Shown here piece by piece: positions 1-45,670 of a stretch of 64,000 bases of DNA. The position numbers and the translations under genes were made by a program. Within the stretch, counting starts at the first letter, position 1. Every line of letters starts with the position of its first letter. This DNA comes from an uncultured Nitrospirota bacterium (GTDB lineage Bacteria; Nitrospirota; Thermodesulfovibrionia; Thermodesulfovibrionales; JdFR-85). The stretch is taken from NCBI GenBank assembly GCA_964515925.1, contig CAZEYP010000006.1, positions 11,591 through 75,590 on the forward strand, in the 5' to 3' direction. Under the pieces are notes generated by a model that did no database searches, had not been told where the DNA came from, and saw only the letters and a program-made list of their open reading frames with translations.

Positions 1-695
1 TCAAAATAGGTTAGTTTTATTGACCTGTCCATATATGAACGGGCAATCCTTTCCTTTACAGGGCAAACATAATTGCACATGCCACAACCTGTGCAGTAAT
101 CGGGGTCAACATAGGGTCTCACGCCTGTTGCTCCCCTTATAATCTCATTAGGTGGTCTGTCTCGAAGGGCCTTATCTTTTAAAGGACAGTTGTAATAACA
201 TTCACCACATGAGTCATACTGCCATGCAAGACAGATTTTTCTGTTTATCTTTGACACACCTATTTTCAGTTCGTCAGGGAGATTTTCAAGAACCTCTCTG
301 GTATTCAGTATCTTTTTAAGAGCTCCTGTTGGACAGGCCTGTCCACATCGCAGGTATTTGCTTATGGGTCTGTCTATACCATCCTCACCTCTTTTTAAAC
401 AGAGATAACATGGGGTCTCAAGTGGGTTTATATAGGGTGTATAGATTGATGCACCGGCTGTGATGTCAAGAAATTTTATACTGTCATAGGGGCATGCCTC
501 GATACATTTACCGCATCTTATACATTTTTCAAGAAAGTCTGATGTAGCTCCTGGTGGTCTCAAGATTATAAATCTTTTCTGAAGAGGCAAAAGGCTTAAA
601 GCAAAGAATCCCCCCAGTTGTTTAAGGAATTCTCGCCTTGTAGTTTCAAAAGATAAGACTTTAATATCGTTTGATTTCCACAATGGCAACCTCAT
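1..695 (-). CDS. NapG/MauM-type periplasmic ferredoxin with four [4Fe-4S] motifs (partial; C-terminus beyond window edge)
   Basis: Absent from the ORF track because it is open at the window edge. My minus-strand translation from ATG 695 reads MRLPLWKSNDIKVLSFETTRREFLKQLGG (Tat-like signal), then CIRCGKCIEACP, CYLC..CGQACP, C..CGECYYNCP and CTGCGMCNYVCP. It lies directly downstream of napA. The start could instead be TTG 683. Confidence 0.7.
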   Translation of the reverse strand, partial: MRLPLWKSNDIKVLSFETTRREFLKQLGGFFALSLLPLQKRFIILRPPGATSDFLEKCIRCGKCIEACPYDSIKFLDITAGASIYTPYINPLETPCYLCLKRGEDGIDRPISKYLRCGQACPTGALKKILNTREVLENLPDELKIGVSKINRKICLAWQYDSCGECYYNCPLKDKALRDRPPNEIIRGATGVRPYVDPDYCTGCGMCNYVCPVKERIARSYMDRSIKLTYF

Positions 696-1059
696 ATCTT
701 CTGCCTTTAATCTGGTAAGGTGTCTGTACAGCTCCGCGAACCTTAATCTTTTGTCCTTTCGACGGCATCAACCCCCTGGTAATAACCCATATCTGGCCTG
801 TAGAGTCCTTGAGGAGATAGGGCTGTTCGTTTACGAACTCAAAGGCAAGCCCTGGTTCAGCCTGACCCGCTATTGTTACTATTGAGTCTTTGAATTTTGA
901 CGGCTCCTTCAGTATTTCACCAATGCTAACGATTACCTCACTGCCTGTCTTTCCTTTCTGCTTTCCACCAACCTCCTCTTCCTTCTCAACGCATGCTGCA
1001 ACTATTAGAAATAAAGCAATTGATAGCACAAATGCCTTTTTTAAAATGTATGTCATCAT
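661..1059 (-). CDS. small putative lipoprotein of unknown function (possibly OB-fold like)
   Basis: ORF 661..1092. The likely start is MMTYILKK (ATG 1059 or 1056), preceded by GGGAG. It has a hydrophobic signal ending in the lipobox-like LIVAAC. There is no CxxCH, so it is not NapB. It lies between napA and the NapG-like gene. Confidence 0.5.
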   Translation of the reverse strand: MMTYILKKAFVLSIALFLIVAACVEKEEEVGGKQKGKTGSEVIVSIGEILKEPSKFKDSIVTIAGQAEPGLAFEFVNEQPYLLKDSTGQIWVITRGLMPSKGQKIKVRGAVQTPYQIKGRRYEVAIVEIKRY

Positions 1060-1115
1060 CTCCCTGTCTTTATTTTGGGGAAGGAGATACAACGATCTCC
1101 TTCCCGCTGTTTCTT

Positions 1116-3539
1116 TTATACCTTCTCAAGTTTTACAGCACAAACTTTAAAGTCAGGCTCACCTGCACCTGACCAGCTCTTGGGAACATCTACGGTAAGG
1201 AGGTTAATCAGTTTATTTTCGTCAAACCATGGAACGAATACCATACCGGGCCTTGCCCTGTCGGTGACCCATACAGGTAAGACAATCTCACCCCTTCTGG
1301 ATATGATCTTTAGTTTATCTCCACTTTTCAGGTGTAATGATTTTGCATCCTCAGGGGAGACCTCTACATAGGCCCTTGGATTCATCTCCCTTAGAAGCCT
1401 GACCCGCATGGTAAGGGTGCCTGAGTGCCAGTGCTCTATTACACGGCCGGTGTTAAGCACATAGGGATATTCGACATCGGGCATCTCGTAATCAAGCCCT
1501 GCCTTAAGTACTCTTACAATAGCCTTTCCTTCCGAGCCCTTGTGGAATGGGTGATGACCATAGTAGTTAAATGGGCCCTTGTATCCCTTCTGTTCAAGGT
1601 GCTGGTCATATAGGGTGACATAGCCGGTCTTGTATTTTCTGTTTGCCCTGCCGTAGACCTCAAGGGCGTGGGCCTTGCTGATAAACCTCTTTGCAGAACC
1701 ACGGTTTTCGAAGTCCGTACTCGGACATGGCCATTGCACTCCGCCTGCATGTGCCTTGAGCTTTTCATATGTGGCGCCCCAGAGGTCCACATCCTGTCCT
1801 CTGGTGCAGAGCCTGTATTCATTCCATGCCTCCTCTTCGGTCCCAAAACCAAGTCCATAGACCTCTTTAATACTCTTCACTTCACCGGTCATGGGATCGA
1901 TAACCCTGTAATGGGTCATTCTGCCAAGTTTTTTTGCAATTCTCTTTGCCACCTCAAGTATCTGCCAGAAGTCAGCCCTTGCATCACCGGGTGGGTCTAT
2001 TACCTTGGGAATGAACTGTGACCTCCGGTCAGTCTGACCCATTACGCCCTCTTTTTCTACCCATAGTGCTGAAGGCAGTATTACCGATGCAAGCTCTGTT
2101 GTCCTTGTAGGATAGACATCGCTTACCACAGTGAATGCCTTTTTCATGGCCTTACGGTATTTACCGGCATTGGGCAGGCTCTGACCGGGATTAGTGGTAT
2201 TTATCCATATGGCCTTGATCTTGCCCTGACTTAGACGCATAAACATATTTACTGCAGGGCCAGTGGGTTTTTGGGGTAACCATTCCACAGGAACTCCCCA
2301 GATCTCGGCGATTTCTTTACGGTGTTTTGGATTAGCCACGGCTCTGTGGCCTGGCAGTATATGAGTGAGCCCCCCCTGCTCCCTTGTTCCTCCACAGGCA
2401 TTTGGCTGACCAGTGAGTGAAAGGCTGTCACAACCTGGTTTGCCTATCTTGCCGGTTATTAGATGCAGGTTGTGAAGCAGACAGTTAAGATGCACTCCTT
2501 TGGTCCTTTGATTGATTCCCATGGTCCAGATACTGAGTGTGGAGTATCCCTTTCTGCCAAACCACAGGGCAGCTTTTCTGATATCGGATGCCGGAACTCC
2601 TACAAGACCCTCTATTTTCTCTGGCGCATAGTCCTTGAGGAATTCCCTGTAGCTATTGAAGTCTATAAATTTGCCCTTGGTTTTAAGTCCTGTCCTGAAT
2701 GTACAATACTTCAGATGCTCTTCATCAATAAGCCCCTTTTCAACGATTACATAAGCCATTGAGTTAAGAAGATACATATCATAACCTGGACGGAATTTCA
2801 GATGCAGATCTGCATACCGGGCCGTAGGTGTATACCTTGGGTCTGCCACTACGACCTTTACCCTGTCAGGGTAGGCGCTCTTACGGTCAATGACCCTCCT
2901 GAACAGCATTGGATGGTTTTCTGCTGTGTTAGAGCCTATTATGAATATGCAATCTGCTGCATCAAAGTCATCGTAAGTGCCTGCTGGCTCATCAGTGCCA
3001 AAGGTATTCAGATAACCGCCAACAGCAGAGGCCATACAGAGACGAGGATTGCCCTCTACATTGGCTGTGCCAATGATACCTTTGAAGAGTTTGTTGGCTG
3101 CAAAGGCTTCCTGTGTAGTGTTTTGTCCTGAACCATACCAGGCAACCGAATCAACTCCATATTTTTTAATGTAGTGAACAAATCTATCGGCAATCAGGTC
3201 CAGTGCCTCATCCCAGGAAACCTCCTTATAACTTCCATCAGACTGTCTGACCATTGGTTTCGTTAATCTGTCCTTGCCATACATAATATGAGGCAGGGAA
3301 TAACCCTTCATGCAGAGCCTCCCAAAGTTTACAGGACTGTCGGCATCACCCTTAACAGCCACGACCTTACCATTTTTCACACCCACCAGAACCGCACACC
3401 CTGTGCCACAGAACCTGCATTGTGACCTTTCGTACCTGATTGATGAGTCTGCCACAGCATCTGCAGGCAACCCAGCCATGGCAAGAGCCGCTGCTGCTGC
3501 GGAGGCCTTGATAAAATCTCTTCTACTAAGTCCCATCAC
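1116..3539 (-). CDS. napA: periplasmic nitrate reductase catalytic subunit NapA (molybdopterin oxidoreductase)
   Basis: 807 aa with Tat signal SRRDFIKASAAAAALA. The N-terminal Fe-S motif CRFCGTGCAVLVG..C and KGYSLPHIMYGKDRL closely resemble my memory of the E. coli NapA N-terminus. RBS GGGAGG lies upstream. Confidence 0.85.
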   Translation of the reverse strand: MMGLSRRDFIKASAAAAALAMAGLPADAVADSSIRYERSQCRFCGTGCAVLVGVKNGKVVAVKGDADSPVNFGRLCMKGYSLPHIMYGKDRLTKPMVRQSDGSYKEVSWDEALDLIADRFVHYIKKYGVDSVAWYGSGQNTTQEAFAANKLFKGIIGTANVEGNPRLCMASAVGGYLNTFGTDEPAGTYDDFDAADCIFIIGSNTAENHPMLFRRVIDRKSAYPDRVKVVVADPRYTPTARYADLHLKFRPGYDMYLLNSMAYVIVEKGLIDEEHLKYCTFRTGLKTKGKFIDFNSYREFLKDYAPEKIEGLVGVPASDIRKAALWFGRKGYSTLSIWTMGINQRTKGVHLNCLLHNLHLITGKIGKPGCDSLSLTGQPNACGGTREQGGLTHILPGHRAVANPKHRKEIAEIWGVPVEWLPQKPTGPAVNMFMRLSQGKIKAIWINTTNPGQSLPNAGKYRKAMKKAFTVVSDVYPTRTTELASVILPSALWVEKEGVMGQTDRRSQFIPKVIDPPGDARADFWQILEVAKRIAKKLGRMTHYRVIDPMTGEVKSIKEVYGLGFGTEEEAWNEYRLCTRGQDVDLWGATYEKLKAHAGGVQWPCPSTDFENRGSAKRFISKAHALEVYGRANRKYKTGYVTLYDQHLEQKGYKGPFNYYGHHPFHKGSEGKAIVRVLKAGLDYEMPDVEYPYVLNTGRVIEHWHSGTLTMRVRLLREMNPRAYVEVSPEDAKSLHLKSGDKLKIISRRGEIVLPVWVTDRARPGMVFVPWFDENKLINLLTVDVPKSWSGAGEPDFKVCAVKLEKV

Positions 3540-3655
3540 TACACCTCCCTTGTTCTCAGGCCCGGAGGCCCTGTTTTGAAAACTCTATTTTATTTTCTCA
3601 CAGCCCCTTGTAAATTGGTTATCAAATCGTGTAAATTTTTTGTAAATTTAAAAAT

Positions 3656-3755
3656 ACAGGGGGTAGCGTGTAGGGTGTAAAAAAGACAGGGTGTAGGGGG
3701 TAGCGTGTAGGGGGTAGTAAAAGACAGGGGGTAGCGTGTAGGGAGTAGGGTGTAG
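3656..3755 (+). repeat. G-tract heptamer array (three modules of A-tract + ACAGGG(G/T)GTAG(C/G)GTGTAGGG...)
   Basis: Read directly: acagggggtagcgtgtagggtgt / acagggtgtagggggtagcgtgtagggggtagt / acagggggtagcgtgtagggagtagggtgtag. These are period-7 GTAGGGN/GTAGCGT units. Confidence 0.85.
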
Positions 3756-3760
3756 TTAAG

Positions 3761-3809
3761 GAACGCGATGAACTCAATGAACGCAAAGAACGCAATTAAC
3801 GCAATAACC
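3761..3809 (+). repeat. 9-bp tandem array, 5.4 copies, unit (G/T)AAC(G/T)C(A/G)A(T/A)
   Basis: GAACGCGAT GAACTCAAT GAACGCAAA GAACGCAAT TAACGCAAT AACC. The array ends 6 nt before the AGGAGG RBS of the macro-domain gene. Confidence 0.85.
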
Positions 3810-3826
3810 AATCTCAGGAGGTGTTT

Positions 3827-4369
3827 ATGGAGTTAGTAAAAGAGGTAAAGATTGATGGTAAGGTCTTAAGACTTGTTAAGGGTGATATTACCGAAAGGGA
3901 TGTGGATGTTATTGTAAATGCAGCCAACTCTTACCTGAAGCATGGTGGTGGTGTGGCAGGTGCAATCGTTCGTAAGGGTGGGCATATCATACAGGAAGAA
4001 AGTGACAGGATTGGTTTTGTCCCTGTGGGCTCTGCGGCTATCACCACAGCAGGTCGACTACCCTGTAAGGCTGTAATCCATGCAGTTGGTCCAAGGATGG
4101 GCGAAGGTGACGAAGATAATAAACTGAAGAATGCAGTGCTGAGTAGCCTCAGGCTTGCAGCGTCAAAGGGATTCAAGAGTATTTCATTACCTGCAATAAG
4201 CTCCGGGATATTCGGATTTCCAAAGGACCGATGTGCGAAAATACTCGTTGGGGAGTCAAGAAGGTATTTGCTCGAAAACCTCGACTCTTCTGTTGAGATA
4301 GTAGAGTTCTGCATATTTGATGATGAAACGCTTGGACATTTTAAAAGAGAGTTTGATGCCCTCGGGTAG
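3827..4369 (+). CDS. macro domain protein (ADP-ribose binding / O-acetyl-ADP-ribose deacetylase family)
   Basis: MELVKEVKIDGKVLRLVKGDITERDVDVIVNAANSYLKHGGGVAGAI shows the macro-domain signature. The ORF track starts at GTG 3821, but I prefer ATG 3827 with AGGAGG (3816..3821) 5 nt upstream. Confidence 0.85.
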   Translation: MELVKEVKIDGKVLRLVKGDITERDVDVIVNAANSYLKHGGGVAGAIVRKGGHIIQEESDRIGFVPVGSAAITTAGRLPCKAVIHAVGPRMGEGDEDNKLKNAVLSSLRLAASKGFKSISLPAISSGIFGFPKDRCAKILVGESRRYLLENLDSSVEIVEFCIFDDETLGHFKREFDALG

Positions 4370-4372
4370 AAT

Positions 4373-6916
4373 TCATAATTTTACTTTTACTTCAACTACA
4401 GAGCTAAAAAGTAAGAGATTTTTCCTGATCTTAAGGGTTACAGTTTCTCCCTGTGATTTGTCAAGTAAATATATTTTCAGGTCATCAACATCCTTTACCG
4501 GTTGACCATCAATAGATAATATTATTGAGCCAGCTGTAATTCCTGCTCTGTCTGCAGGGCTGTCTTCTGTAACTCTTTCAACCTTTACACCCTCGTCAGT
4601 CCTTTTTATAAAGACCCCAAGGCGGGGAGATCGAGGTGGATCTGCCCAGGCAGTATAGAACACATAGTCAGCCACTCCTCTTCCAAGTCTGTTTTCTCCA
4701 CCTTCCGAGCCATTTACAATAATAGAAAAAGTAACATTCCTTTTACGCTTCACTCTGTCTGGTATGCCCCAGGCATTCCTGATGTGACCATTTCCAGCAA
4801 TTACAATTATCTGTGAATCAGGGAATTTGTCGAGAGCCTTTATTACCGAGTCTGCCATTGTTTCATCCCAGATCAACTGAGAAAAGTAAAAGTTTTCAAA
4901 GGTCCTGCCCTTTCTTCTTCCATGTCGTGAAAATATCCTTTTAAGATACCGCAGGTATTCTCTGTTCTGAAGGTCTATTCCTTTTGGCAGGAGTTTTCTC
5001 TCATCAGGACTGAGGGAGTCGATTCCCTTTGAGGAGACCTTATCCACTATTTCTCTTTTTATATTCAGTGCAATTATTGGTATGCCCTTTGCCCTTGCAA
5101 ACTGAATAATGTCTCTGTAGAGGTTGTAGTCATAGACCCATCTCTTGAAGTATTCTGTTTTCTTAAGCATCTCTGCTTCAGTTATTTTGCCCTCAATAAA
5201 CTGGTCAAGGTACTTCTGAAAGGGACGTTGAAACATCTCCATTCCTATCACCAGATGTTTGTTTATTTCATAGAGCTTTCTTATTATTTCAAATTGTATG
5301 ATATGATGGTTGTAGTTGAGATGGTCCTCTCCTATGTAAACAATAGTTGAATCCTTTATTTGCTGAGCTATATCATCGATACTACCGCCCTCAGCAGGTC
5401 TTACTGCATGAAAGTCGTCACTGAGATTGATTATGATTCCCATGTCTCTATGATCGACTCTTTTTGAGATATTTCTGCCTTCTGAAAATGCAAGTTCAGA
5501 ATAATTGCCATAGTGCCCTATCTTGTGAAATGCCTTGCTTATTGCCTCAGCGTCTGATGCGTCTATCAGCATGATGTATCGAGCCTGGTTCAGAGGATTT
5601 GGAAAGACCCTGATATAAAAATCACCGTTTTCCTCTACATCGCTGTCAAAGGCCATCCTGAATACCCTGTTTTTAGATGAAAGGATTATGAAGGAATGCT
5701 CCTTAAGCTGATTGAATTTGAACTCCTTATCAGAGAAAACCCTGAGACCCCTGTTTTTGTAATACTGTATTATCTCATGATAGAGCGTCTTTTCCTCATC
5801 GCGGTATATAAGGCGGGCACCACTGTCGTCTTTTAGTGCCGAAATAAGAGGAGGGATTTCGTTTTTAGTGGGTATTCTGAAAAGGTCGTACTCAGGGTCT
5901 ATGACTATTTTAAAGGGATTTGCCCTGGTGTATAACTTAATATCTATACTGTCGCTGTCTACCTTTATCCTGTGGTTTTCCACCCCCTGCTCTGTGTAAA
6001 CCCTGATGGGAAGCTCAAAATTGTAGCTTATATCACCGGTTTGTTTGAGTTTCAGGCTGATAACATACCTTGCATTGCGATACAATACAGATATGTAATT
6101 CAGACTGAGTTTAATAGCCCCCTTTTTGTGTACCCAGTAATAAAAGAAGTCCTCCAGTGACCTCTTTGATACCTTTTCAAAGGTCTTTCTTATATCATCC
6201 CATCGAGCCTTCTTCCCGGCAAAATTCTTAATAAAGTCTCGGAGGCCCTGGTAGAAGACCTTATCGCCAAGCTCCACTCTAAGCATATGAAACACCATTG
6301 CTGCCTTTCCGTAACCAACCGCCTTTGTAAGGTTGTCTGTCCTGGTAGTGAATTCTCTTAGAGATATCTCCTCTTTACCTTTCGTATAATTGAGATAATC
6401 CAGCAGAAGTTTTTTTCTGTATACTGCTGCATTACCTTTAAGTTCACTCATTCTGTGGTCTGCAAGATATGTTGTCAATCCCTCAGACCAGTTTCCCTCT
6501 GATGGGTCAACCTCCACCAGAGAGCCAAACCATTGATGAACAATCTCATGGGGAAGGGATGTTTCAGGGATGAAGGGAAGCCTTATCACAGCAGAGCCAA
6601 ACAGTATATATCTTGGAAAGGAGACGCCAATGGGTCTGTCTGTTTCAACTATGTTGAGTTCTTTATATGGAAATGGGCCAAGAAGTGACTGAAAGTCTTT
6701 CAGGTATCCTTTGGTATATTCAAGATATTTCTCTGCAAGCTCAGGGTCGTCTTCCTTAAGATAGACCTTTATCTTTATCTCACCAAGCTGGTCTTTGTAG
6801 ATGTGGACCCCAGAGAGGATGAGTTGAGAGTTGTCTTTTCTACGGGATGCCTCCTTAGCTGATGCATTTATCACAAGCCCAAGCACACACACAAGGATTA
6901 AAAGGACTCTTTTCAT
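4373..6916 (-). CDS. secreted multidomain protein: HExxH gluzincin (M1/peptidase_MA-like) domain + ChaN/Tiki-like domain + C-terminal PDZ
   Basis: The start is moved to MKRVLLILV (ATG 6916, GGAGG upstream), which gives a signal peptide. HEIVHQWFG...E zinc motif at nt 6536..6550. Mid-protein IVYIGEDHLNYNHH...GMEMFQ resembles the ChaN/haem-binding-uptake family. The C-terminal GVKVERVTEDSPADRAGITAGSIILSIDG is PDZ-like. Confidence 0.7.
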   Translation of the reverse strand: MKRVLLILVCVLGLVINASAKEASRRKDNSQLILSGVHIYKDQLGEIKIKVYLKEDDPELAEKYLEYTKGYLKDFQSLLGPFPYKELNIVETDRPIGVSFPRYILFGSAVIRLPFIPETSLPHEIVHQWFGSLVEVDPSEGNWSEGLTTYLADHRMSELKGNAAVYRKKLLLDYLNYTKGKEEISLREFTTRTDNLTKAVGYGKAAMVFHMLRVELGDKVFYQGLRDFIKNFAGKKARWDDIRKTFEKVSKRSLEDFFYYWVHKKGAIKLSLNYISVLYRNARYVISLKLKQTGDISYNFELPIRVYTEQGVENHRIKVDSDSIDIKLYTRANPFKIVIDPEYDLFRIPTKNEIPPLISALKDDSGARLIYRDEEKTLYHEIIQYYKNRGLRVFSDKEFKFNQLKEHSFIILSSKNRVFRMAFDSDVEENGDFYIRVFPNPLNQARYIMLIDASDAEAISKAFHKIGHYGNYSELAFSEGRNISKRVDHRDMGIIINLSDDFHAVRPAEGGSIDDIAQQIKDSTIVYIGEDHLNYNHHIIQFEIIRKLYEINKHLVIGMEMFQRPFQKYLDQFIEGKITEAEMLKKTEYFKRWVYDYNLYRDIIQFARAKGIPIIALNIKREIVDKVSSKGIDSLSPDERKLLPKGIDLQNREYLRYLKRIFSRHGRRKGRTFENFYFSQLIWDETMADSVIKALDKFPDSQIIVIAGNGHIRNAWGIPDRVKRKRNVTFSIIVNGSEGGENRLGRGVADYVFYTAWADPPRSPRLGVFIKRTDEGVKVERVTEDSPADRAGITAGSIILSIDGQPVKDVDDLKIYLLDKSQGETVTLKIRKNLLLFSSVVEVKVKL

Positions 6917-7053: not shown

Positions 7054-8061
7054 TTAGAATATCCTTGTTATCTCATCCCTGTCAAATCTACTGAGTGGTC
7101 TATCCTTTCCCTGGCTAACAATAACATACCTTCCCGGCTCATCAGTAAACTCGCCTATTTCAGATGCACTTATACCAGAAGCGTTGAGTTTTTTTACTAT
7201 TGTTTTTGATAGTTCTTTTCTTACTGCTGCCAGTAGTGCTCCTGATGAAATAACACCCAGTGGATTCAGTCCGAAGTATGCACATATTTTTTTAGTTTCC
7301 TCTGGAATTATTATGTTTTCCTCATACACCCGGATTCCCAGTTTTGCTGGCCTTGCCATCTCACAAAGAGCAGTTGCCAGCCCACCTTCTGTGGGGTCAT
7401 GAAGTGCCTTTACACCCCCTGTCTCACATATAATTTTTGCCTCTTCAAGTACACTTATGCCAGGGTCCTTTATAAAATTATTACATCTTTTTTGAAACTC
7501 ATCGCCAAAGCGATCTCTTATTTCCTCTTCCTTCTCCTGTGCCATAATAGCCGTGGCTTCAATACCAACTCCCTTTGTAAGTATTAGCTTATCACCAGCT
7601 TTTATGTGCTCAGGATTAAGGAGTCGGTCCTTCCTTACAAGACCAAGCATCTGGCCAATAACGATTGGCCTGTCTATACCGTAGGTGACCTCTGTGTGTC
7701 CACCGCAGATTGTAATGTTGAGTTTCTTACATTCCTCAGAAAGGTCAGAAAAGATGTTTTTAATTAGCCCCTCATCTGTCTTTTCCTCTGGAAGAAGCAG
7801 GGTTACAAGAAACCATCTGGGTCTGCCGCCCATACAGGCAATATCGTTTGCATTAATGGTGATTGCGTAAAGACCAATTCTGCTGGTTACAAAGGTGATG
7901 GGATCTGTTTTTGCTATCAGGTAATACTCTGCGCCGATATCGATTACTGCTGCATCCACTCCCACCCTGGCTCCAACTACTACAGAGGGGTCGTCAACAC
8001 CGTGGAACTGGCCTATCAGGCTTTCAAGCAGTTCCAGTGGTAGCTTTCCAGTGGGGAGCAT
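7054..8061 (-). CDS. AIR synthase-related protein (PurM/HypE/ThiL superfamily)
   Basis: 335 aa. MLPTGKLPLELLESLI...GVDAAVIDIG...TDPITF...NDIACMGGRP..GGHTEV is the typical PurM-superfamily N- and C-domain pattern. Confidence 0.65.
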   Translation of the reverse strand: MLPTGKLPLELLESLIGQFHGVDDPSVVVGARVGVDAAVIDIGAEYYLIAKTDPITFVTSRIGLYAITINANDIACMGGRPRWFLVTLLLPEEKTDEGLIKNIFSDLSEECKKLNITICGGHTEVTYGIDRPIVIGQMLGLVRKDRLLNPEHIKAGDKLILTKGVGIEATAIMAQEKEEEIRDRFGDEFQKRCNNFIKDPGISVLEEAKIICETGGVKALHDPTEGGLATALCEMARPAKLGIRVYEENIIIPEETKKICAYFGLNPLGVISSGALLAAVRKELSKTIVKKLNASGISASEIGEFTDEPGRYVIVSQGKDRPLSRFDRDEITRIF

Positions 8062-14737: not shown

Positions 14738-16936
14738 ATGGGAATCAGCAGGCGAGAGTTTATCAAGTATGCTGCACTGGGTCTTGCTGGCTCAGCAGCG
14801 CTAACCACAGAGGTTTTTAAACCTCTTTCGGCAATGGGGCTTGATGATGACCGTGCAGTACTAAAGCATGTTCCCACCGTATGCGAGATGTGCTTCTGGA
14901 TGTGTGGTGCTATAGGGAGGGTGGTAAACGGAAGGCTTGTTAAACTTGAGGGTAACCCCCTTCATCCAAAAAGCCGTGGCCGTCTCTGTGCAAGGGGTAA
15001 TGCCGGAATGGGCCTTCTTTATGACCGCGACAGGCTAAAGGCTCCTCTCATTAGAACAGGTGCCAGAGGAGAAAACAAGTACAAGAAGGCATCCTGGGAT
15101 GAGGCCCTCAATTATGTGGCTGACAGGATGACCAAGATCAAGGAAAAATACGGTCCCGAGGCAATAGCCCTTTTTGCCCATGGCTCCCCGGGCAGTTATT
15201 TCTTTGATCTGCTTCTTGCAATGGGCTCTCCTAATATTACCTTTCCATCGTTTTCACAGTGCCTTGGGGCCAGGAATGTGGGATATGAACTGACCTTTGG
15301 AGAAGACCCTGGCTCAGGCCCTGAGAGGGTGGATATGGCAAACAGCAGGGTTATTGCCATGTTTGCCACTCACCTTGGTGAAAATATGCATAACTCACAG
15401 GTTCAGGATTTCACAGAGGCTGTTGGCAGAGGAGTAAAGCTGATTGTAGTTGACCCAAGATTCTCCACAGCAGCAGGCAAGGCACATTACTGGCTACAGA
15501 TCAAACCCGGCACTGACCTGGCATTGATGCTTGCCTGGCTTCATGTACTTATTTATGAGAAATGGTATGACGAGGATTATATAAGAAAATATACAGAGGG
15601 GTTTGAGGAGCTTAAGAAGGGTGTAAAGGACTACACCCCTGAGTGGGCAGAAAAGGAGACCGATATACCTGCAAGGTTAATCGTTGAGACAGCAAGGGAG
15701 CTCGGACGCTACAGGCCAAATGTGGTTGTTCATCCAGGCAGACATTATTCATGGCATGGTAATGACACCCAGAGGGCAAGGGCAAACGCCCTGCTGAATG
15801 CGGTACTTGGTACCTGGGGTGCAAGGGGTGGCATTTATCTGAAACCCCACGCAAAGCTTCCGTCGCTGAAGGGTAAACCCTTTCCTGAGCCACAGAGAGA
15901 ATCTATAGCTGTACCAGATAAGTATCCCTTTGCAGGTGGTGAGGGACTAACCAATGAGGTAAGAAGAGCCACTATAACGGGTGATCCCTATCCAATAAAG
16001 GCATGGATTGTAGTGGGAACCAATCTGGTGAAGACCCTTCCAAATCAGAAAGAGACACTTCAGGCAATAAAGAATCTTGACCTCTTCGTAAGCGTTGATG
16101 TGATGCCAATGGATACCACCATGCTTGCAGATGTAATACTGCCTGAGACCACATATCTTGAAAGACATGATGAACTAAAAAAGGTCTATGCAAAGTCACT
16201 GGGAATTGCACTGAGGCAGCCAGTGGTAAAGCCACTTTTTGAGGTAAAACCAGCATGGTGGATTGCCAAGCAGCTTGCAAAGAGGCTTGGCCTTGAGGAT
16301 TACTTCCCTTATAATCAGCTTGAAGACAAACTCCGCAAGCAGGCAAAGCTCTGGAATATAGACTACGATGAACTGAAGAGAAAGGGCTATCATGTAATAC
16401 CAAACTCGGCAAGGCCCTATTTTGGTCCTGACAATCCACCGAAATTCAAAACAGAGTCTGGAAAGATAAATCTCTACAGCAAAGAACTCGAGGCCTATGG
16501 CTTTGACCCGATTCCAAAATACACAAGGGTTGAGCAACCTCCCGAGGGTTATATGAGACTTCTGTATGGAAGGGTTCCAATGCACACCTTTACAAGAACG
16601 GTAAATAACAAGTGGCTCTGGGAACTTAAGAAGGAAAACCATGTATGGATAAACACAGAGGTTGCCAAGAGACTCAATATAAAGGATGGTGAGTATGTGG
16701 TGCTTGAAAACCAGGATGGCATACGAAGCAATAAGGTACTTGCAAAGGTAACAGAAAGGATAAGAAAGGATTGCGTCTATCTACCTCATGGTTTTGGTCA
16801 GATGTCAAAGCTTCTAAGCAGGGCCTATATGAGAGGTGCAGATGACCAGGGGCTGATAACAAAGTACAAGGTGGATCCCATATCAGGTGTAACAGGGATG
16901 AGGGTTAACTTTGTAAAGATTATAAAGGAGGCTTAG
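14738..16936 (+). CDS. molybdopterin oxidoreductase catalytic subunit, PsrA/PhsA (polysulfide/thiosulfate reductase-like) family
   Basis: 732 aa with Tat signal SRREFIKYAALGLAGSAAL and N-terminal CEMCFWMCG...C Fe-S motif. It is followed by 4Fe-4S and NrfD-type subunits. Substrate cannot be assigned from sequence. Confidence 0.8.
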   Translation: MGISRREFIKYAALGLAGSAALTTEVFKPLSAMGLDDDRAVLKHVPTVCEMCFWMCGAIGRVVNGRLVKLEGNPLHPKSRGRLCARGNAGMGLLYDRDRLKAPLIRTGARGENKYKKASWDEALNYVADRMTKIKEKYGPEAIALFAHGSPGSYFFDLLLAMGSPNITFPSFSQCLGARNVGYELTFGEDPGSGPERVDMANSRVIAMFATHLGENMHNSQVQDFTEAVGRGVKLIVVDPRFSTAAGKAHYWLQIKPGTDLALMLAWLHVLIYEKWYDEDYIRKYTEGFEELKKGVKDYTPEWAEKETDIPARLIVETARELGRYRPNVVVHPGRHYSWHGNDTQRARANALLNAVLGTWGARGGIYLKPHAKLPSLKGKPFPEPQRESIAVPDKYPFAGGEGLTNEVRRATITGDPYPIKAWIVVGTNLVKTLPNQKETLQAIKNLDLFVSVDVMPMDTTMLADVILPETTYLERHDELKKVYAKSLGIALRQPVVKPLFEVKPAWWIAKQLAKRLGLEDYFPYNQLEDKLRKQAKLWNIDYDELKRKGYHVIPNSARPYFGPDNPPKFKTESGKINLYSKELEAYGFDPIPKYTRVEQPPEGYMRLLYGRVPMHTFTRTVNNKWLWELKKENHVWINTEVAKRLNIKDGEYVVLENQDGIRSNKVLAKVTERIRKDCVYLPHGFGQMSKLLSRAYMRGADDQGLITKYKVDPISGVTGMRVNFVKIIKEA

Positions 16937-16940
16937 AGAG

Positions 16941-17498
16941 ATGCCAAAGTATGCAATGGTTATAGACCAGCGTCGTTGTATCGGTTGTCTTGCATGCATT
17001 GTGGCTTGCAAGCGAGAAAATCATGTTCCAGAGGAGCACTACAGGACAAGGGTAGTGGAGGAAGTAAATGGTAAGGCACCAAAGCTAAGGATGGAGCTCC
17101 GCTCTGAGCTTTGCAATCACTGTGACAATCCCCCCTGCGTGTATAACTGCCCAACCGGAGCATCCTATAAGGATGAAGACGGCACAGTACAGATAGACCG
17201 TAATAAATGCGTTGGTTGTAAGGCATGTATTGCTGCATGCCCTTACGATGCCCGTTACATTGACCCCGAGCATGGCTATGCAGACAAGTGCACCTTCTGT
17301 CAGCACCGGTTGAAGGTTGGAAAGGAGCCTGCCTGTGTTGCAACCTGTATCGGCAAGTCAAGGATCTTTGGTAATCTTGAAGACCCCTACAGCAAGGTGA
17401 GCCAGCTGCTTAAAGAGTACAGTTCCTATGTGAGACTGCCAGAGGCTGGAACCCATCCGAGGGTCTTTTATATCCGTAAACAATCAAAGCCAGAATAA
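16941..17498 (+). CDS. 4Fe-4S ferredoxin-type electron transfer subunit (PsrB/NrfC family)
   Basis: 185 aa with CIGCLACIVACK, CNHCDNPPCVYNCP, CVGCKACIAACP and CTFC...C clusters. Confidence 0.85.
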   Translation: MPKYAMVIDQRRCIGCLACIVACKRENHVPEEHYRTRVVEEVNGKAPKLRMELRSELCNHCDNPPCVYNCPTGASYKDEDGTVQIDRNKCVGCKACIAACPYDARYIDPEHGYADKCTFCQHRLKVGKEPACVATCIGKSRIFGNLEDPYSKVSQLLKEYSSYVRLPEAGTHPRVFYIRKQSKPE

Positions 17499-17511
17499 AA
17501 GGAGGTTTAAG

Positions 17512-18498
17512 ATGGAACTCACTATATACGGAACAAATGCATTGACCTATCCCCACCTGCATATCTGGGACTGGAGGATAGCAAGCTATCTTTTCCTTGG
17601 CGGCCTGACCGGTGGAGCACTGGTCATGTCTGCCATTGCCAACCTCAGAAAGGGGAAGAAAGAGCCCGAAGACAGGGCATGCTGTGTGAAGGTGCCTCTT
17701 ATAGCTCCGTTTATACTGATGCTTGGTATGTTTTTCATATTCCTTGATGTTGAAAGAAAGCTCAATTCTTTTCATTTCTATCTGACCTTTCAGCCTCTTT
17801 CACCCATGTCGTGGGGTGCCTGGGGTGTGGGTGCAGTGGTTCCGCTTAGTTTTCTTTATGGTTTGTCCACGGTGCCTGATGACTTGAAACACTGGCTTGT
17901 TTTTGATTTTCTCAAAAAGTGGTCTAAAAAGCTGAATCCCTACATGCGGGAGCTGGCGGTTATTAACTTTGTAATGGGTATCTTTGTGGGCATATACACT
18001 GGTGTGCTTCTTAGTTCCTTTGTGGCAAGACCACTCTGGAATTCGGCTCTGCTTCCCATACTGTTTCTGAATTCAGCCCTGTCTACAGGAGCAGCGCTGG
18101 TGATAATAATGGCAAGGAAAAACGAGGTGAAGCTCTTCTTCACAAAGGTGGATATATGGCTGATATTTTCAGAGATTACCCTTATTGCCCTGTTCTTCTA
18201 TGGCCATTACACATCCACTGCGTCTCACAGGGAATCAATAATGCCCTTTTTTACCTTCTCCCATGAGTTTTTCCCTTACTGGATCAGTGTCCTCCTTCTG
18301 AGCATCATATTCCCTCTTGCCATTGTGCTTAAATTCCTTGAGGTAAAGGGTGAGCATTCAGAGACACTGACTGGATTTGAGAAGTTCAGGATGAACCTCA
18401 GCGCCATTCTTGTGCTGGTTGGTGGATTCATTATCAGGATGGCACTTATCTATGCAGGTCAGCTTATTAAGATGACAGACAAGATAGCGAAGTTTTAA
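17512..18498 (+). CDS. NrfD/PsrC-type integral membrane quinol-interacting anchor subunit
   Basis: 328 aa with about 8 TM segments. It is the third gene of an A-B-C complex iron-sulfur molybdoenzyme operon. Confidence 0.75.
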   Translation: MELTIYGTNALTYPHLHIWDWRIASYLFLGGLTGGALVMSAIANLRKGKKEPEDRACCVKVPLIAPFILMLGMFFIFLDVERKLNSFHFYLTFQPLSPMSWGAWGVGAVVPLSFLYGLSTVPDDLKHWLVFDFLKKWSKKLNPYMRELAVINFVMGIFVGIYTGVLLSSFVARPLWNSALLPILFLNSALSTGAALVIIMARKNEVKLFFTKVDIWLIFSEITLIALFFYGHYTSTASHRESIMPFFTFSHEFFPYWISVLLLSIIFPLAIVLKFLEVKGEHSETLTGFEKFRMNLSAILVLVGGFIIRMALIYAGQLIKMTDKIAKF

Positions 18499-33263: not shown

Positions 33264-33341
33264 TGGCGGGGTGGACGGGACTCGAACCCGCGACCTCCGG
33301 CGTGACAGGCCGGCGTTCTAACCGTGCTGAACTACCACCCC
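33264..33341 (-). tRNA. tRNA-Asp (anticodon GTC), CCA encoded
   Basis: The reverse complement GGGGTGGTAGTTCAGCACGGTTAGAACGCCGGCCTGTCACGCCGGAGGTCGCGGGTTCGAGTCCCGTCCACCCCGCCA folds into a cloverleaf with a 7-bp acceptor stem, anticodon loop CTGTCAC and a TTCGAGT T-loop. Confidence 0.93.
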
Positions 33342-40879: not shown

Positions 40880-40886
40880 ATTTATT

Positions 40887-41315
40887 GGGCAGGCAATAAG
40901 CCGGGTTCTGTACTGGTGGTCATTTATCTGAGGCAGAGGATTGCTCCCCTGCTCATGCGGCCTACCCGTTCCGTACAATCAGGCGGGCCACCTTCTGGGC
41001 GGAACCTATTTGGCCTTGCTCCGGACAGGGTTTGCCGTGCCTGGAGTGTCGCCACCCCAGCGGTGGGCTCTTACCCCACCTTTTCACCCTTACCCCGCAC
41101 CCAGTTGGTTTTCAGAAGGGTGTCTTTTCCAATCTGGCAATAAAGATTAGTGCTATAACCTTCTTTTTACTCCTGAAACCCAACTGGGTGCGGGGCGGTC
41201 TGTTTTCTGTGGCACTTTCCCTTGGCTTACGCTAGGTGGCTGTTAGCCACTGTCCTGCCCTGCGGAGCCCGGACTTTCCTCTGGAGTATATACTCCAGCG
41301 ACCACCTGCCTGCCC
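40887..41315 (-). ncRNA. rnpB: RNase P RNA (bacterial type A) with extended P12
   Basis: The minus strand contains GAGGAAAGTCCGGGCTCC, GGTAAGGGTGAAAAGGTGGGGTAAGAGCCCACC, GGAGCAAGGCCAAATAGG and ACAGAACCCGGCTTAT. P1 pairs GGGCAGGCA with TGCCTGCCC. The ends are approximate to within a few nt. Confidence 0.9.
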
Positions 41316-41431
41316 TTTATATTTTGTGGTTAAACAAGAACAAATTAATAAGCCTGGGGCTTACCCAGGGAGTTTCATTTATTTTAGCATTTTCCTGTTG
41401 TTTAATATGGGGGAGTAAAAAACAACAATAT

Positions 41432-42586: not shown

Positions 42587-42663
42587 TGGTGGGCCCACCA
42601 GGACTCGAACCTGGGACCGACCGGTTATGAGCCGGTTGCTCTAGCCAACTGAGCTATGGGCCC
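42587..42663 (-). tRNA. tRNA with CAT anticodon (elongator Met, or Ile2 if lysidine-modified), CCA encoded
   Basis: The reverse complement GGGCCCATAGCTCAGTTGGCTAGAGCAACCGGCTCATAACCGGTCGGTCCCAGGTTCGAGTCCTGGTGGGCCCACCA folds into a cloverleaf. It is not initiator-like, because the anticodon stem lacks the three consecutive G-C pairs. Confidence 0.9.
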
Positions 42664-42747: not shown

Positions 42748-42776
42748 TTGACTTTTTTGTTGAATATATTTATAAT
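42748..42776 (+). promoter_or_regulatory. near-consensus sigma-70 promoter of the cadC-cadA-like operon (TTGACT-17-TATAAT)
   Basis: TTGACT at 42748..42753, an exact 17-nt spacer, and TATAAT at 42771..42776. Confidence 0.7.
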
Positions 42777-42791
42777 TGAACAGGTGTTCAA
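42776..42791. promoter_or_regulatory. ArsR/SmtB-type operator palindrome TTGAACA-GG-TGTTCAA overlapping -10/+1
   Basis: A perfect 7-2-7 inverted repeat. The TGAACA..TGTTCA core matches remembered ArsR/SmtB-family (cad/smt/czr) operators. Confidence 0.65.
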
Positions 42792-42793
42792 CT

Positions 42794-43156
42794 GTGAAAT
42801 GGAAGGATAGAGACATTTGTGAGGTTGATTACTTCGACCCAAAGAAGGTAGCCTCTGTGAAAAAGAGGTTTAAGCCAGAACGAACTATTCAGCTACTTGC
42901 CGAGACCTTCAGAGTGCTTGGTGATTCTACACGGGTAAAGATACTGTTTGCCCTTTCCAGGGAAGAACTCTGTGTTTGTGATCTTGCAAATCTCCTGGGC
43001 ACATCAAAGTCTAATGTATCACATCAGTTAAGACTGCTCAGAAACATGAGGCTGGTTAAATACAGAAGACAGGGGAAGATGGTCTATTACAGTCTTGACG
43101 ATGACCACATAAGAAACCTCTTTGAAGAGGGACTCAGGCATGTAGAGGAGAGATAG
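42794..43156 (+). CDS. cadC: ArsR/SmtB-family metalloregulator, CadC-like
   Basis: ELCVCDLANLLG (alpha3 CVC site) and HQLRLLRNMRLV (HTH). The N-terminal arm (M)KWKDRDICEVDYFDPKKV aligns with my memory of S. aureus CadC MKKKDTCEIFCYDEEKV. I therefore prefer GTG 42794 over the ORF-track TTG 42776, which lies inside the -10 box. Confidence 0.8.
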   Translation: MKWKDRDICEVDYFDPKKVASVKKRFKPERTIQLLAETFRVLGDSTRVKILFALSREELCVCDLANLLGTSKSNVSHQLRLLRNMRLVKYRRQGKMVYYSLDDDHIRNLFEEGLRHVEER

Positions 43157-45282
43157 TGCAGAAAAGATATGTAATCAAGGGCCTTTCGTGAGCAAATTGT
43201 GCACAAAAGGTGCAGGATGCACTGAACAGGATTCCAGGTGTTAAGGCTGACCTTAACTTTGCTACCGAGACCCTTATGCTTGATGTTAGTGATCTGGATG
43301 CTGAAGACAGGGCAATAAAGAAGATCCTTCAGATGGAGCCACAGGTAAAAGTAATTGATGCTGAAAATGACCCCGAAGGAGACGAGCATCAAAAGGGAAA
43401 GTTCATCCTTAATAAAATCTCTTACGCAGGGTTATTTTTTGTTATAGGCCTGCTTATTGATTACTATTTCTTACCAGGGGCAAGGTCTTCCGGTGTAACA
43501 GAAACTTCATTCTGGTATGTAGCCCTTCCATATATAATTGCTTACCTGATTTCAGGACAGGATGTTTTGAAAAAGGCACTGTTGGGAATCAGAAAGGGTG
43601 ATTTTTTTAGTGAGAACTTTCTTATGAGTATTGCAACTATAGGTGCATTCCTGATAGGGGAGTTTCCTGAGGCTGTTGGTGTAATGCTGTTTTTCAAGGT
43701 GGGTGAGTACTTTGAGGAGAGGGCGGTAGGGCATTCAAGGAAGTCTATAAAGAGCCTGCTTAAGCTCAGGGCTGATTACGCAAATCTCTGGAAAGATGGA
43801 GAAACCATCCAGATAAGCCCTGAAGAGGTAAAGGTGGGTGATATTATTCTGGTAAGACCCGGGGAGAGGGTCCCTCTTGATGGTGTGGTTGTGCAGGGAG
43901 AAACAGCGGTTGATACATCAGCACTTACAGGAGAGCCTGTTCCAAAAGGTCTAAGGCCAGGAGATGATGTGCTTTCCGGGATGGTTAACAAAAACAGTGT
44001 TATTCTTGTTAAGGTAACCAGTCCCTTTGAGCGCTCTACCGTAAGCAGAATACTGCAGCTTGTCGAGAAGGCGGCTACGCAGAAGGCACCAACAGAGAGG
44101 TTCATTACCCGTTTTTCCAGGGTGTATACCCCGGTGGTGGTATCTCTATCAGTGGGCATGGCAGTGCTGCCGCCGCTTTTTTTTCAGCAGGAAACCTATT
44201 CAGAATGGATTTACCGGTCTCTTGTATTTCTTGTAATTTCCTGCCCCTGTGCCCTTGTGCTTTCCATACCAGTTGGTTTCTTTGGTGGTATAGGTGCATC
44301 AGCACGAAAGGGGGTGCTTTTCAAAGGAGCTAACTACCTTGAAGCCTTCAGAAAGGTGCATACAATGGTCTTCGACAAAACAGGCACCCTGACCGAAGGG
44401 GTTTTTAAGGTGGTGGATATAAGGGCATTTAATGGATTCTCTAAAGACGACCTGCTGAGGCTTGCTGCCCTTGCAGAGGCTCATTCAAATCATCCAGTTG
44501 CAAGATCCATAATTGAGGCTTACGACGGAAACATAGACGAGGGAAGCATTGAGAGTTACGAGGAAATACCGTCTCACGGGGTAAAGGTGGTAGCTGATGG
44601 AAGGGAGATTGTTGCAGGAAACGACAGAATATTGCATCTAAATGAAAAGGAGATACAACACGATACCTGTGTGACAGAAGGTACTGTTGTCCATGTTGCT
44701 GTTGATGGCAGATATGCTGGATATATAGTTCTTTCAGATGTAATCAGAGAGGATGCTAAGACAACCATTCAGACCCTTAAAAAGGAAGGCGTTAGGCGTA
44801 TTATAATGCTTACGGGTGATGACAGAGAAGCGGCTGAACAGGTGGCACGGACGCTGCAGATTGATGAATTCCATGCAGAGCTGTTACCAGAGGAGAAGAT
44901 CGAACTGGTCAGGGAGCTTGAGAAGGAGATTGACCGTAAGCATCACAAGATAGCCTTCGTAGGTGATGGTATAAACGATGCCCCTGTCTTGATGGCCTCT
45001 GATATTGGTATTGCTATGGGAGGGCTTGGCTCTGACGCTGCAATTGAATCAGCAGGTGTGGTGTTGATGAAAGACAGGCTTTCTGCCCTGCTGGACGCCT
45101 TATATATTTCAAGAAGGACAAGAAGGATAGTGTTCGGAAATATTGGGATGGTTTTTTTAATTAAAGGGCTATTCCTGGCGCTCGGTGCCTTTGGTATGGC
45201 TACCATGTGGGAGGCGCTTTTTGCTGATGTAGGGGTAGCCGTGCTTGCCGTCCTTAACTCCACAAGAGTTCTGAAGAGCTAA
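43156..45282 (+). CDS. cadA: heavy-metal P1B-type ATPase (CadA/ZntA-like) with an N-terminal HMA domain interrupted by in-frame TGA 43189..43191 (Sec candidate or nonsense)
   Basis: The ORF track gives 43210..45282 (CPC, DKTGTLT, HP and GDGINDAP motifs are all present). The same frame upstream encodes GTG-QKRYVIKGLS-TGA-ANCAQKVQDALNRIPGVKADLNF.., a full HMA fold. GTG 43156 overlaps the cadC stop and has GAGGAG upstream. Confidence 0.65.
43209..43223 (+). promoter_or_regulatory. candidate SECIS-like hairpin GGUGCA-GGA-UGCACU 17 nt downstream of the in-frame UGA
   Basis: The stem is G.U, G-C, U-A, G-C, C-G and A-U with loop GGA. It resembles the apical E. coli fdhF SECIS GGUUGCAGGUCUGCACC (from memory). 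It is short and could be coincidental. Confidence 0.3.
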
Positions 45283-45409: not shown

Positions 45410-45438
45410 TTGAAATTTAAAAAAATATGCTGTATAAT
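45410..45438 (+). promoter_or_regulatory. candidate promoter TTGAAA-17-TATAAT (extended TGn) giving a leaderless nfu mRNA
   Basis: TTGAAA at 45410..45415, a 17-nt spacer, and TATAAT at 45433..45438, with ATG 45446 seven nt downstream. No SD is present. Confidence 0.55.
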
Positions 45439-45445
45439 GTCTTGT

Positions 45446-45670
45446 ATGGATCAGGAGAGGCTTTACAGGGTTATTGAGGAGATCAGGGATGGGCTTAAAA
45501 AGGAGGGTGGTGATCTGGAACTGGTTGATGTAAGGGGAGATATTGTTTATGTCCGTTTAACAGGTCAGTGTGAGAGCTGTATGATGGCAGGTCTCACAAT
45601 GAAGAACTGGGTGGAGAGAAAGCTAAAAGAGGCATTTCCTGAATTAAAAGAGGTAAGGGCTGTTGGATAA
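45446..45670 (+). CDS. NifU C-terminal-domain (Nfu-type) Fe-S cluster scaffold/carrier protein
   Basis: MDQERLYRVIEEIRDGLKKEGGDLELVDVRGDIVYVRLTGQCESC matches the Nfu pattern with CxxC. The ORF-track start TTG 45410 coincides with the -35 box. Confidence 0.8.
   Translation: MDQERLYRVIEEIRDGLKKEGGDLELVDVRGDIVYVRLTGQCESCMMAGLTMKNWVERKLKEAFPELKEVRAVG

Follow-up and report, generated by a model that had tools for sequence, protein, structure and literature searches.

An in-frame TGA at a metal-ligand cysteine position of a P1B-type ATPase gene from an uncultured Nitrospirota bacterium, probably read as selenocysteine

How is a TGA codon read when it lies near the start of an otherwise intact metal-pump gene, exactly where the first metal-binding cysteine is expected? 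The question is raised by a P1B-type ATPase gene in a stretch of 64,000 nucleotides (the window; contig CAZEYP010000006.1, positions 11,591 to 75,590, of assembly GCA_964515925.1) from an uncultured Nitrospirota bacterium. The frame opened by GTG 43156-43158 passes through TGA 43189-43191 into a P1B-ATPase open reading frame (ORF) of 690 codons, and no further stop is met before 45282. We conclude that the gene at 43156-45282 very probably encodes a full-length Zn/Cd/Pb-class P1B ATPase with selenocysteine (Sec, U) in place of the first metal-ligand cysteine of its heavy-metal-associated (HMA) domain (G-L-S-U-A-N-C). Its features are as follows, where "Sec forms" denotes the six orthologues, the window gene included, that carry the TGA.

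43145-43150, + strand: Shine-Dalgarno sequence GAGGAG, 5 nt ahead of GTG 43156; GGAGG lies upstream of the start in 6/6 Sec forms
43156-45282, + strand: coding sequence of the full-length P1B-type (Zn/Cd/Pb-class) ATPase, 708 codons including the putative Sec at codon 12, plus stop
43174-43329, + strand: HMA domain with U-A-N-C metal loop, residues 7-58, Pfam PF00403
43189-43191, + strand: in-frame TGA, putative selenocysteine codon (U12), where the GxxCxxC loop has its first Cys
43198-43200, + strand: TGT, the second metal-binding cysteine (C15) of UxxC, invariant in 6/6 Sec forms

A conserved TGA in the metal-binding loop of a P1B-type ATPase

The N-terminus read from GTG 43156 is V-Q-K-R-Y-V-I-K-G-L-S-TGA(43189-43191)-A-N-C-A-Q-K-V(43210)-Q-D-A-L-N-R-I-P-G-V-K-A-D-L-N-F-A-T-E-T-L. 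The GTG at 43156-43158 overlaps by one base the TAG stop (43154-43156) of an upstream ArsR/CadC-type gene. A first-pass annotation of this DNA had pointed to the frame upstream of the listed start and to its overlap with the cadC stop, and both are in the sequence as it described them; GAGGAG is present as well, although its distance from the GTG is 5 nt and not the 6 nt given there. A mechanically made ORF list begins the ATPase at GTG 43210, a Val codon six codons past the TGA.

When U was read as C, the Pfam HMA model (PF00403) matched residues 7-58 with 35.1 bits against a gathering score of 24.8, and in alignments with the HMA domains of CopA (1P6T), ZntA (1MWY) and CadA (2AJ0) from the PDB the first cysteine of GMTCxxC fell on the TGA position. 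Both results agree with the earlier description of a complete HMA domain interrupted by a TGA at the first Cys of its metal loop. The whole ATPase scored 562.7 bits against TIGR01525 (heavy-metal-translocating P-type ATPase; cutoff, 346.25) and 509.8 bits against TIGR01512 (the cadmium-family model; cutoff, 313.5), and the nearest solved structure was ZntA 4UMV (E=1.5e-108). A CPC motif (SCPCALV) and the phosphorylation motif DKTGT (FDKTGTLT) are present in the translated protein, and we take these to be marks of the P1B-2 (Zn/Cd/Pb) subgroup. The cutoffs of the ZntA-specific NCBIfam models were missed (NF033775, 474 bits versus 1240; NF008262, 529 versus 1005). The window protein is accordingly described here as a predicted Zn/Cd/Pb-class P1B pump, ZntA/CadA-like but no equivalog of E. 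coli ZntA. Like the ZntA/CadA P1B-2 ATPases (4UMV; N-terminal domains 1MWY and 2AJ0), it has a single N-terminal HMA domain, with an ArsR/CadC-type repressor encoded upstream here. Unlike them, it has a TGA codon for the first metal-ligand Cys and scores far under the ZntA-specific models, and its metal class is a prediction.

The Sec forms comprise the window gene, L001/L002 (GCA_054013935.1 and a Logan assembly), L003/L004/L006 (GCA_015484595.1 and an ENA assembly), L005 (CAZIIE01), L086 (GCA_054046125.1) and L159 (an ENA assembly). All six have TGA at the same codon, at 60-91% nucleotide identity over 2 kb, and the same column holds TGT or TGC in 40 other rows of the HMA alignment (37 loci). 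A TGA that six orthologues share at the HMA Cys column is far more than chance would produce. The alignment of relatives that the first-pass annotation had proposed as a check thus came out with TGA, not TGY, in close and distant relatives alike, and the invariant codon supports its reading of the gene as a UxxC Sec form of the CadA/ZntA-type HMA metal loop.

The codons on either side of the TGA differ synonymously or conservatively among the Sec forms (Gly9, GGC/GGG/GGT; Leu10, CTT/CTC; residue 11, Ser or Thr, TCG/AGT/ACA/ACC/ACT), and Y5, G9, L10, [S/T]11, C15, A16 and K18, which make up the HMA beta-1, loop and alpha-1 pattern, are invariant. The start codon stands exactly 11 codons before the TGA in 6/6 Sec forms (ATG in five, GTG in the window), with GGAGG ahead of it, and it either overlaps the stop of the regulator gene or lies next to it. 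Both flanks of the TGA appear from this comparison to be under purifying selection, and the data argue strongly that ribosomes read the TGA through as part of one HMA-ATPase polypeptide. The genetic code is not reassigned, because TGA is the normal stop for 11/49 window genes; a genome-wide reassignment of TGA was rejected on this ground. The doubt that is left concerns the residue inserted and which hairpin serves as the insertion signal, not whether the codon is read.

Cys-form Nitrospirota orthologues (P0005-P0011, P0015, L007-L010 and L160) are 63-72% identical to the window protein and share the arsR-ATPase layout, with an HMA loop of the form G-L-T/S-C-A-S-C-A; they differ from the Sec forms in having TGT or TGC in place of TGA. 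The N-termini of P0005, P0006, P0007, P0010, P0013 and P0016-P0028 were inspected, and a Cys- or His-containing extension (e.g. MGKECCHN..., MGKECCHNKECN...) preceded the HMA domain in 11/16 Cys forms examined. HMA beta-1 is the very start of the protein in the Sec forms and in a small number of Cys forms (P0008, P0011 and P0015). A quick neighbour-joining distance tree of the ATPase core, which is indicative only, placed the Sec forms in two adjacent subclades, one of the window, L001, L003 and L005 and the other of L086 and L159; the Cys form P0015 lay between them, and a Cys-form sister clade (P0005-P0012) lay alongside. Two further candidates for Sec forms were rejected: L085, which falls inside the Cys clade, has lost the first (N-terminal) half of its HMA domain and the metal loop with it, and L087 has no HMA domain at all. 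A scan of metagenome contigs for more Sec forms yielded only Cys-form or distant pumps.

Selenocysteine as the probable residue, and the stem-loop that may guide its insertion

Sec would be the expected residue at the TGA because the site is that of a metal-ligand cysteine in a UxxC context and the family is already catalogued as a selenoprotein. The first-pass annotation had noted that selenoproteome surveys include Sec forms of cation-transporting ATPases, and they do (PMC2398784, PMC1976440, PMC5029168, PMC9312934, PMC13188914). The family of metal-pump ATPases appears in its Sec form in a study of Olavius symbionts (PMC1976440) and in the Global Ocean Sampling study (PMC2398784); 32 Sec-ATPase genes in 25 organisms were counted in a survey covering over 5,200 bacterial genomes (PMC5029168), and two reviews list the UxxC motif for the family, with ABB15669.1 as the example (PMC9312934, PMC13188914). 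The window protein resembles the catalogued family in its TIGR01525 membership, as a P1B metal pump, and in its UxxC motif (here U12-A-N-C15), the likeness to ABB15669.1 being one of the motif as published. It differs in its source, an uncultured Nitrospirota bacterium; the surveys examined name no Nitrospirota for Sec-ATPases.

The mechanism that we propose has translation starting at GTG 43156, where GAGGAG would serve it and where it would be coupled to termination on the ArsR/CadC-type repressor gene upstream. SelB with Sec-tRNA(Sec) would then decode the UGA at codon 12, guided by an mRNA stem-loop just downstream, most likely GGUGCA-GGA-UGCACU at 43209-43223. In the cytosolic HMA domain the resulting selenolate/thiolate pair would bind soft metal ions, and the domain would capture metal and modulate transport as in ZntA/CadA-type pumps; a functional gain in metal binding may follow. 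Two hairpins compete for the role of the selenocysteine insertion sequence (SECIS).

43209-43223, + strand: hairpin B, GGUGCA-GGA-UGCACU, the best SECIS candidate, within the loop, stem and spacing limits of the bacterial SECIS (bSECIS) consensus
43192-43220, + strand: hairpin A (G4-C32 lower stem, UGCAC/GUGCA upper stem, loop AAAAG), which excludes hairpin B

The bSECIS consensus calls for an apical loop of 3-9 nt, an upper stem of 4-16 bp, a G in the first two loop positions, a UGA-loop distance of 16-37 nt and a minimum free energy of at most -7.5 kcal/mol (PMC13188914, Fig. 2 legend). Hairpin B, with a 6-bp stem and a GGA loop, begins 17 nt past the TGA, has a UGA-loop spacing of 23 nt and a loop G at +27, and so agrees with three of the four rules (loop, stem and spacing). 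It is identical in 4/6 Sec forms, the loop G at +27 is invariant, and the third base of codon 21 preserves the closing pair despite a varying amino acid (D, A, A, L). Hairpin B is absent from the nearest Cys forms.

The first-pass annotation had placed this hairpin 17 nt after the TGA and likened it to the apical SECIS of E. coli fdhF; location and likeness both hold. The E. coli sequence that it gave, GGTTGCAGGTCTGCACC, was right too, as it was found inside fdhF in 5,419/5,426 E. coli genomes; TGACACGGCCCATCGGTTGCAGGTCTGCACC is the start of the stretch verified there. Compared with the fdhF SECIS (GGUUGCA-GGUC-UGCACC), hairpin B has a near-identical stem and a loop starting with GG, and it likewise lies inside the coding sequence just past the UGA. 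It departs from that element, however, in having no bulged U, a loop of 3 nt (GGA) in place of 4 nt (GGUC), a UGA-loop distance of 23 nt instead of 18 nt, and no predicted lower stem. By the standards of an fdhF-type SECIS, hairpin B falls short with respect to the bulged U, the loop GGA and the 23-nt distance, and the likeness is one of stem sequence and of the loop GG.

A number of results weigh against selenocysteine or against hairpin B as its signal. The energy of hairpin B in the window is -5.5 kcal/mol against the consensus threshold of -7.5 (it is -7.5 kcal/mol in L003 and -12.6 in L005, where a lower stem is added), and the predicted minimum-energy fold is the competing hairpin A. In L086 and L159 hairpin B is broken, and its shifted, mismatched substitute has an upper stem of 2 bp and an energy of -3 to -4 kcal/mol. 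Covariation supporting hairpin B was sought and none was found, so that no structural claim here depends on covariation; an equally good perfect-stem hairpin that fits the bSECIS loop and spacing rules occurs at 4.2% of coding positions in the window genes, which makes hairpin B only mildly unusual as a chance event; and Rfam placed no RNA family, SECIS included, at the site, either at gathering thresholds over the whole window or at E<=10 over 43100-43350. Neither a sel gene nor tRNA-Sec nor a second selenoprotein gene was detected within the 64-kb window by a tRNA scan, a scan for ORFs continuing through TGA, and Pfam/NCBIfam annotation of 39 ORFs; the RNA genes in the window are those for tRNA-Asp, tRNA-Met and RNase P RNA only. 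The Sec machinery could be tied to no assembly with a Sec-form ATPase, the three SelA contigs that were followed having come from other samples, and the literature searched holds predictions only, with no biochemical proof of Sec in this ATPase family.

Hairpin A, for its part, is picked by RNAalifold weakly (-5.99 kcal/mol, with a penalising covariation term of +0.72), and its loop violates the bSECIS G rule. On this evidence hairpin B is a reasonable candidate for the SECIS, weakly supported in that role, and it adds modest support to the Sec reading without proving it. Three GTGCAC-type palindromes at 43192-43223 (TGTGCAC, GGTGCA and TGCACT) permit the two mutually exclusive hairpins, and a promoter/terminator scan called the same stem terminator-like on the minus strand (43222-43210).

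The comparative data show translation of the codon, not the identity of the residue, and one could therefore envisage that the UGA is recoded as Cys or Trp, by near-cognate suppression or by a Cys-delivering derivative of the Sec machinery, to give a CxxC or WxxC HMA domain. The weak SECIS candidate and the lack of a link between Sec machinery and Sec-form assemblies both suit this alternative, to which we nevertheless assign a small chance. A metal-ligand cysteine in UxxC is the classic site of Sec/Cys exchange, and reviews give this very motif for the family (PMC9312934, PMC13188914). A lineage needing Cys could use TGT or TGC, as the sister clade does, and Trp is unable to act as a metal ligand. 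Furthermore, selA, selB and tRNA-Sec are common in the lineage. A search with the SelA of L085 showed SelA homologues to be plentiful in Nitrospirota and Thermodesulfovibrionia metagenome-assembled genomes; selA and selB were found together on the related Nitrospirota contigs L085, L162, L163 and L167, and ARAGORN detected tRNA-Sec on L162 and L163 among the contigs scanned. Selenocysteine therefore remains our preferred assignment.

In L085 (positions 1-5055; JGI 3300038380, contig Ga0434945_000447), selB and selA are the immediate upstream neighbors, in divergent orientation, of an arsR-ATPase pair that shares 70% identity with that of the window and has no TGA in its ATPase gene; this neighborhood may be a coincidence or the remnant of a functional link. 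In L162 (3391-6589) and L163 (4783-7900) tRNA-Sec lies downstream of selB with a DUF6866 gene between them and no overlap with selB, which sets these contigs apart from some Nitrospirae as described in reviews. The YHS proteins are among the selenoprotein families on record, and a YHS-domain protein beside selA (L167, 172-348, - strand, 58 aa) was considered as a second selenoprotein and rejected, as it is a Cys form ending in ...GHCC-TAA.

The unlikely readings of the TGA as a stop codon or an artefact

A second alternative is that translation really ends at the TGA; the 11 codons upstream would then be a leader or a relic, and an HMA-less pump would be made from a downstream start, GTG 43210 in the window. 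This is how the public databases present the clade. In a protein search the relatives 100%, 93% and 76% identical to the window protein had gene calls of 690 aa that lack the HMA domain, whereas those 63-72% identical have one, and the gene calls of the Sec-form clade (P0001-P0004, P0014, P0027 and P0041) start at 43210 or later, at non-homologous positions. HMA-less pumps do exist among the relatives, and such a pump evidently works: L087 has no HMA domain, and the loss of half the domain in L085 shows that some relatives can do without it.

The sequences around the codon are nonetheless hard to reconcile with a stop, which we consider very unlikely. The residues of HMA beta-1, loop and alpha-1 are kept on both sides of the TGA at 60-91% nucleotide identity with synonymous variation, and no metal-binding loop divided by a stop codon would be maintained if a leader peptide were followed by reinitiation; nor has a half-domain starting within helix alpha-1 any reason to keep A-N-C-A-Q-K. 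The upstream start and its Shine-Dalgarno sequence are conserved, but no downstream start is: codon 19, GTG 43210 in the window, is ATC in L086 and L159, where the gene callers choose differing, non-homologous starts. That codon is not conserved as a start, in keeping with the first-pass view of it as merely the Val of helix alpha-1. The public gene calls of the Sec-form clade thus carry a systematic error, in that they present these genes as truncated.

That the TGA arose in sequencing or assembly, or by a TGY-to-TGA change acquired very recently by a single population, has only the prior frequency of single-base errors in its favor and is refuted, since L165 and L166, from the independent JGI metagenome assemblies 3300023507 and 3300009408, match the window exactly across the gene, GTG start and TGA included, and five more orthologues (from NCBI, ENA and Logan assemblies) have the TGA; error in sequencing or assembly is therefore excluded. 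These identical assemblies, the retention of the TGA among the diverged orthologues, and the ATC at codon 19 in two of those orthologues contradict the alternative that the first-pass annotation had kept beside its Sec reading, in which the TGA is a nonsense mutation or an error of sequencing and translation reinitiates at GTG 43210.

If Sec is inserted at codon 12, synthesis of the pump could become selenium-dependent, with efflux of Zn/Cd/Pb (or Hg) gated or re-tuned and with hairpins A and B switching SelB binding; we hold this elaboration to be improbable. Without charged tRNA-Sec, ribosomes would halt after 11 residues and no pump would be made, except that the window lineage alone might make an HMA-less pump from GTG 43210 instead. 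The position of selA-selB beside the arsR-ATPase pair in L085 would fit such a link.

The Sec-ATPase type is already catalogued; what is new here is a Nitrospirota clade of at least six orthologues, so that a family known so far only from predicted catalogue entries gains a coherent clade in this phylum. No new mechanism is revealed, and a specialist would not be surprised. The analysis corrects a truncated public annotation in which the pump is reported without its metal-binding domain, and the Cys-form sister clade allows Sec and Cys to be compared as they occur in nature. With its small size, good behavior and well-understood structure, the HMA domain would, in a natural U-x-x-C version, be suited to measuring the effect of a selenolate on metal affinity, selectivity and exchange kinetics.

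Operon context and other features of the window

The ATPase gene lies downstream of its regulator in what appears to be a metal-responsive operon, with the following neighbors.

42587-42663, - strand: tRNA-Met(CAT), just upstream of the operon, likewise in L001 and L005
42748-42776, + strand: putative sigma-70-type promoter of the arsR/cadC-ATPase operon, TTGACT-17-TATAAT, 11/12 consensus positions
42769-42798, no strand assigned: inverted repeat TTTATAATTGAACA-GG-TGTTCAACTGTGAA with the perfect core TTGAACA/TGTTCAA, overlapping the -10 box
42776-43156, + strand: ArsR/SmtB-family (CadC-like) metalloregulator gene (Pfam HTH_5, 4.3e-19; NCBIfam NF033788, 98.7 bits versus 55)
45410-45670, + strand: small NifU-domain protein with CxxC; counterparts at 12249-12482 in L001 and 7211-7441 in L003

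ArsR/SmtB repressors have known 12-2-12 operators, and a promoter with an overlapping repeat is the layout expected of an autoregulated ArsR/SmtB-type metal-responsive operon. The sequence at 42748-42776 presumably functions as the promoter, and the inverted repeat at 42769-42798 is likely to be the operator for the ArsR/SmtB-type repressor. The regulator ORF is listed from TTG 42776; its relatives have gene calls of 120 aa, the length that a start at GTG 42794 gives. The same regulator gene precedes the ATPase in L001, L003, L004, L086, L159 and L160. The order tRNA-Met, arsR, ATPase, nifU-like is kept in L001, and arsR-ATPase-nifU-like in L003 and L004; wherever a Sec-form locus reaches far enough, a NifU-domain gene is located 3' of the ATPase. 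It is followed by an AMIN/amidase_3 gene, cbiQ and a gene for an AI-2E-family transporter, a synteny observed at 76-93% protein identity.

Elsewhere in the window the following features were annotated.

1116-3539, - strand: molybdopterin oxidoreductase, NapA/Fdh-like, 807 aa, with no in-frame TGA; below equivalog cutoffs
7054-8061, - strand: AIR-synthase-related protein (AIRS + AIRS_C), 335 aa; below every NCBIfam cutoff
14738-18498, + strand: PhsA-like molybdopterin oxidoreductase, then 4Fe-4S dicluster and NrfD-type membrane subunits; below equivalog cutoffs
33264-33341, - strand: tRNA-Asp(GTC)
40881-41317, - strand: RNase P RNA, class A, 314 bits

The AIRS-family ORF at 7054-8061 scored 125 bits against the hypE model (cutoff, 251.6), 93 against selD (125) and 82.5 against thiL (184); it is not recognisable as a SelD. 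The gene set at 14738-18498 corresponds to a thiosulfate/polysulfide reductase of the Psr/Phs type.

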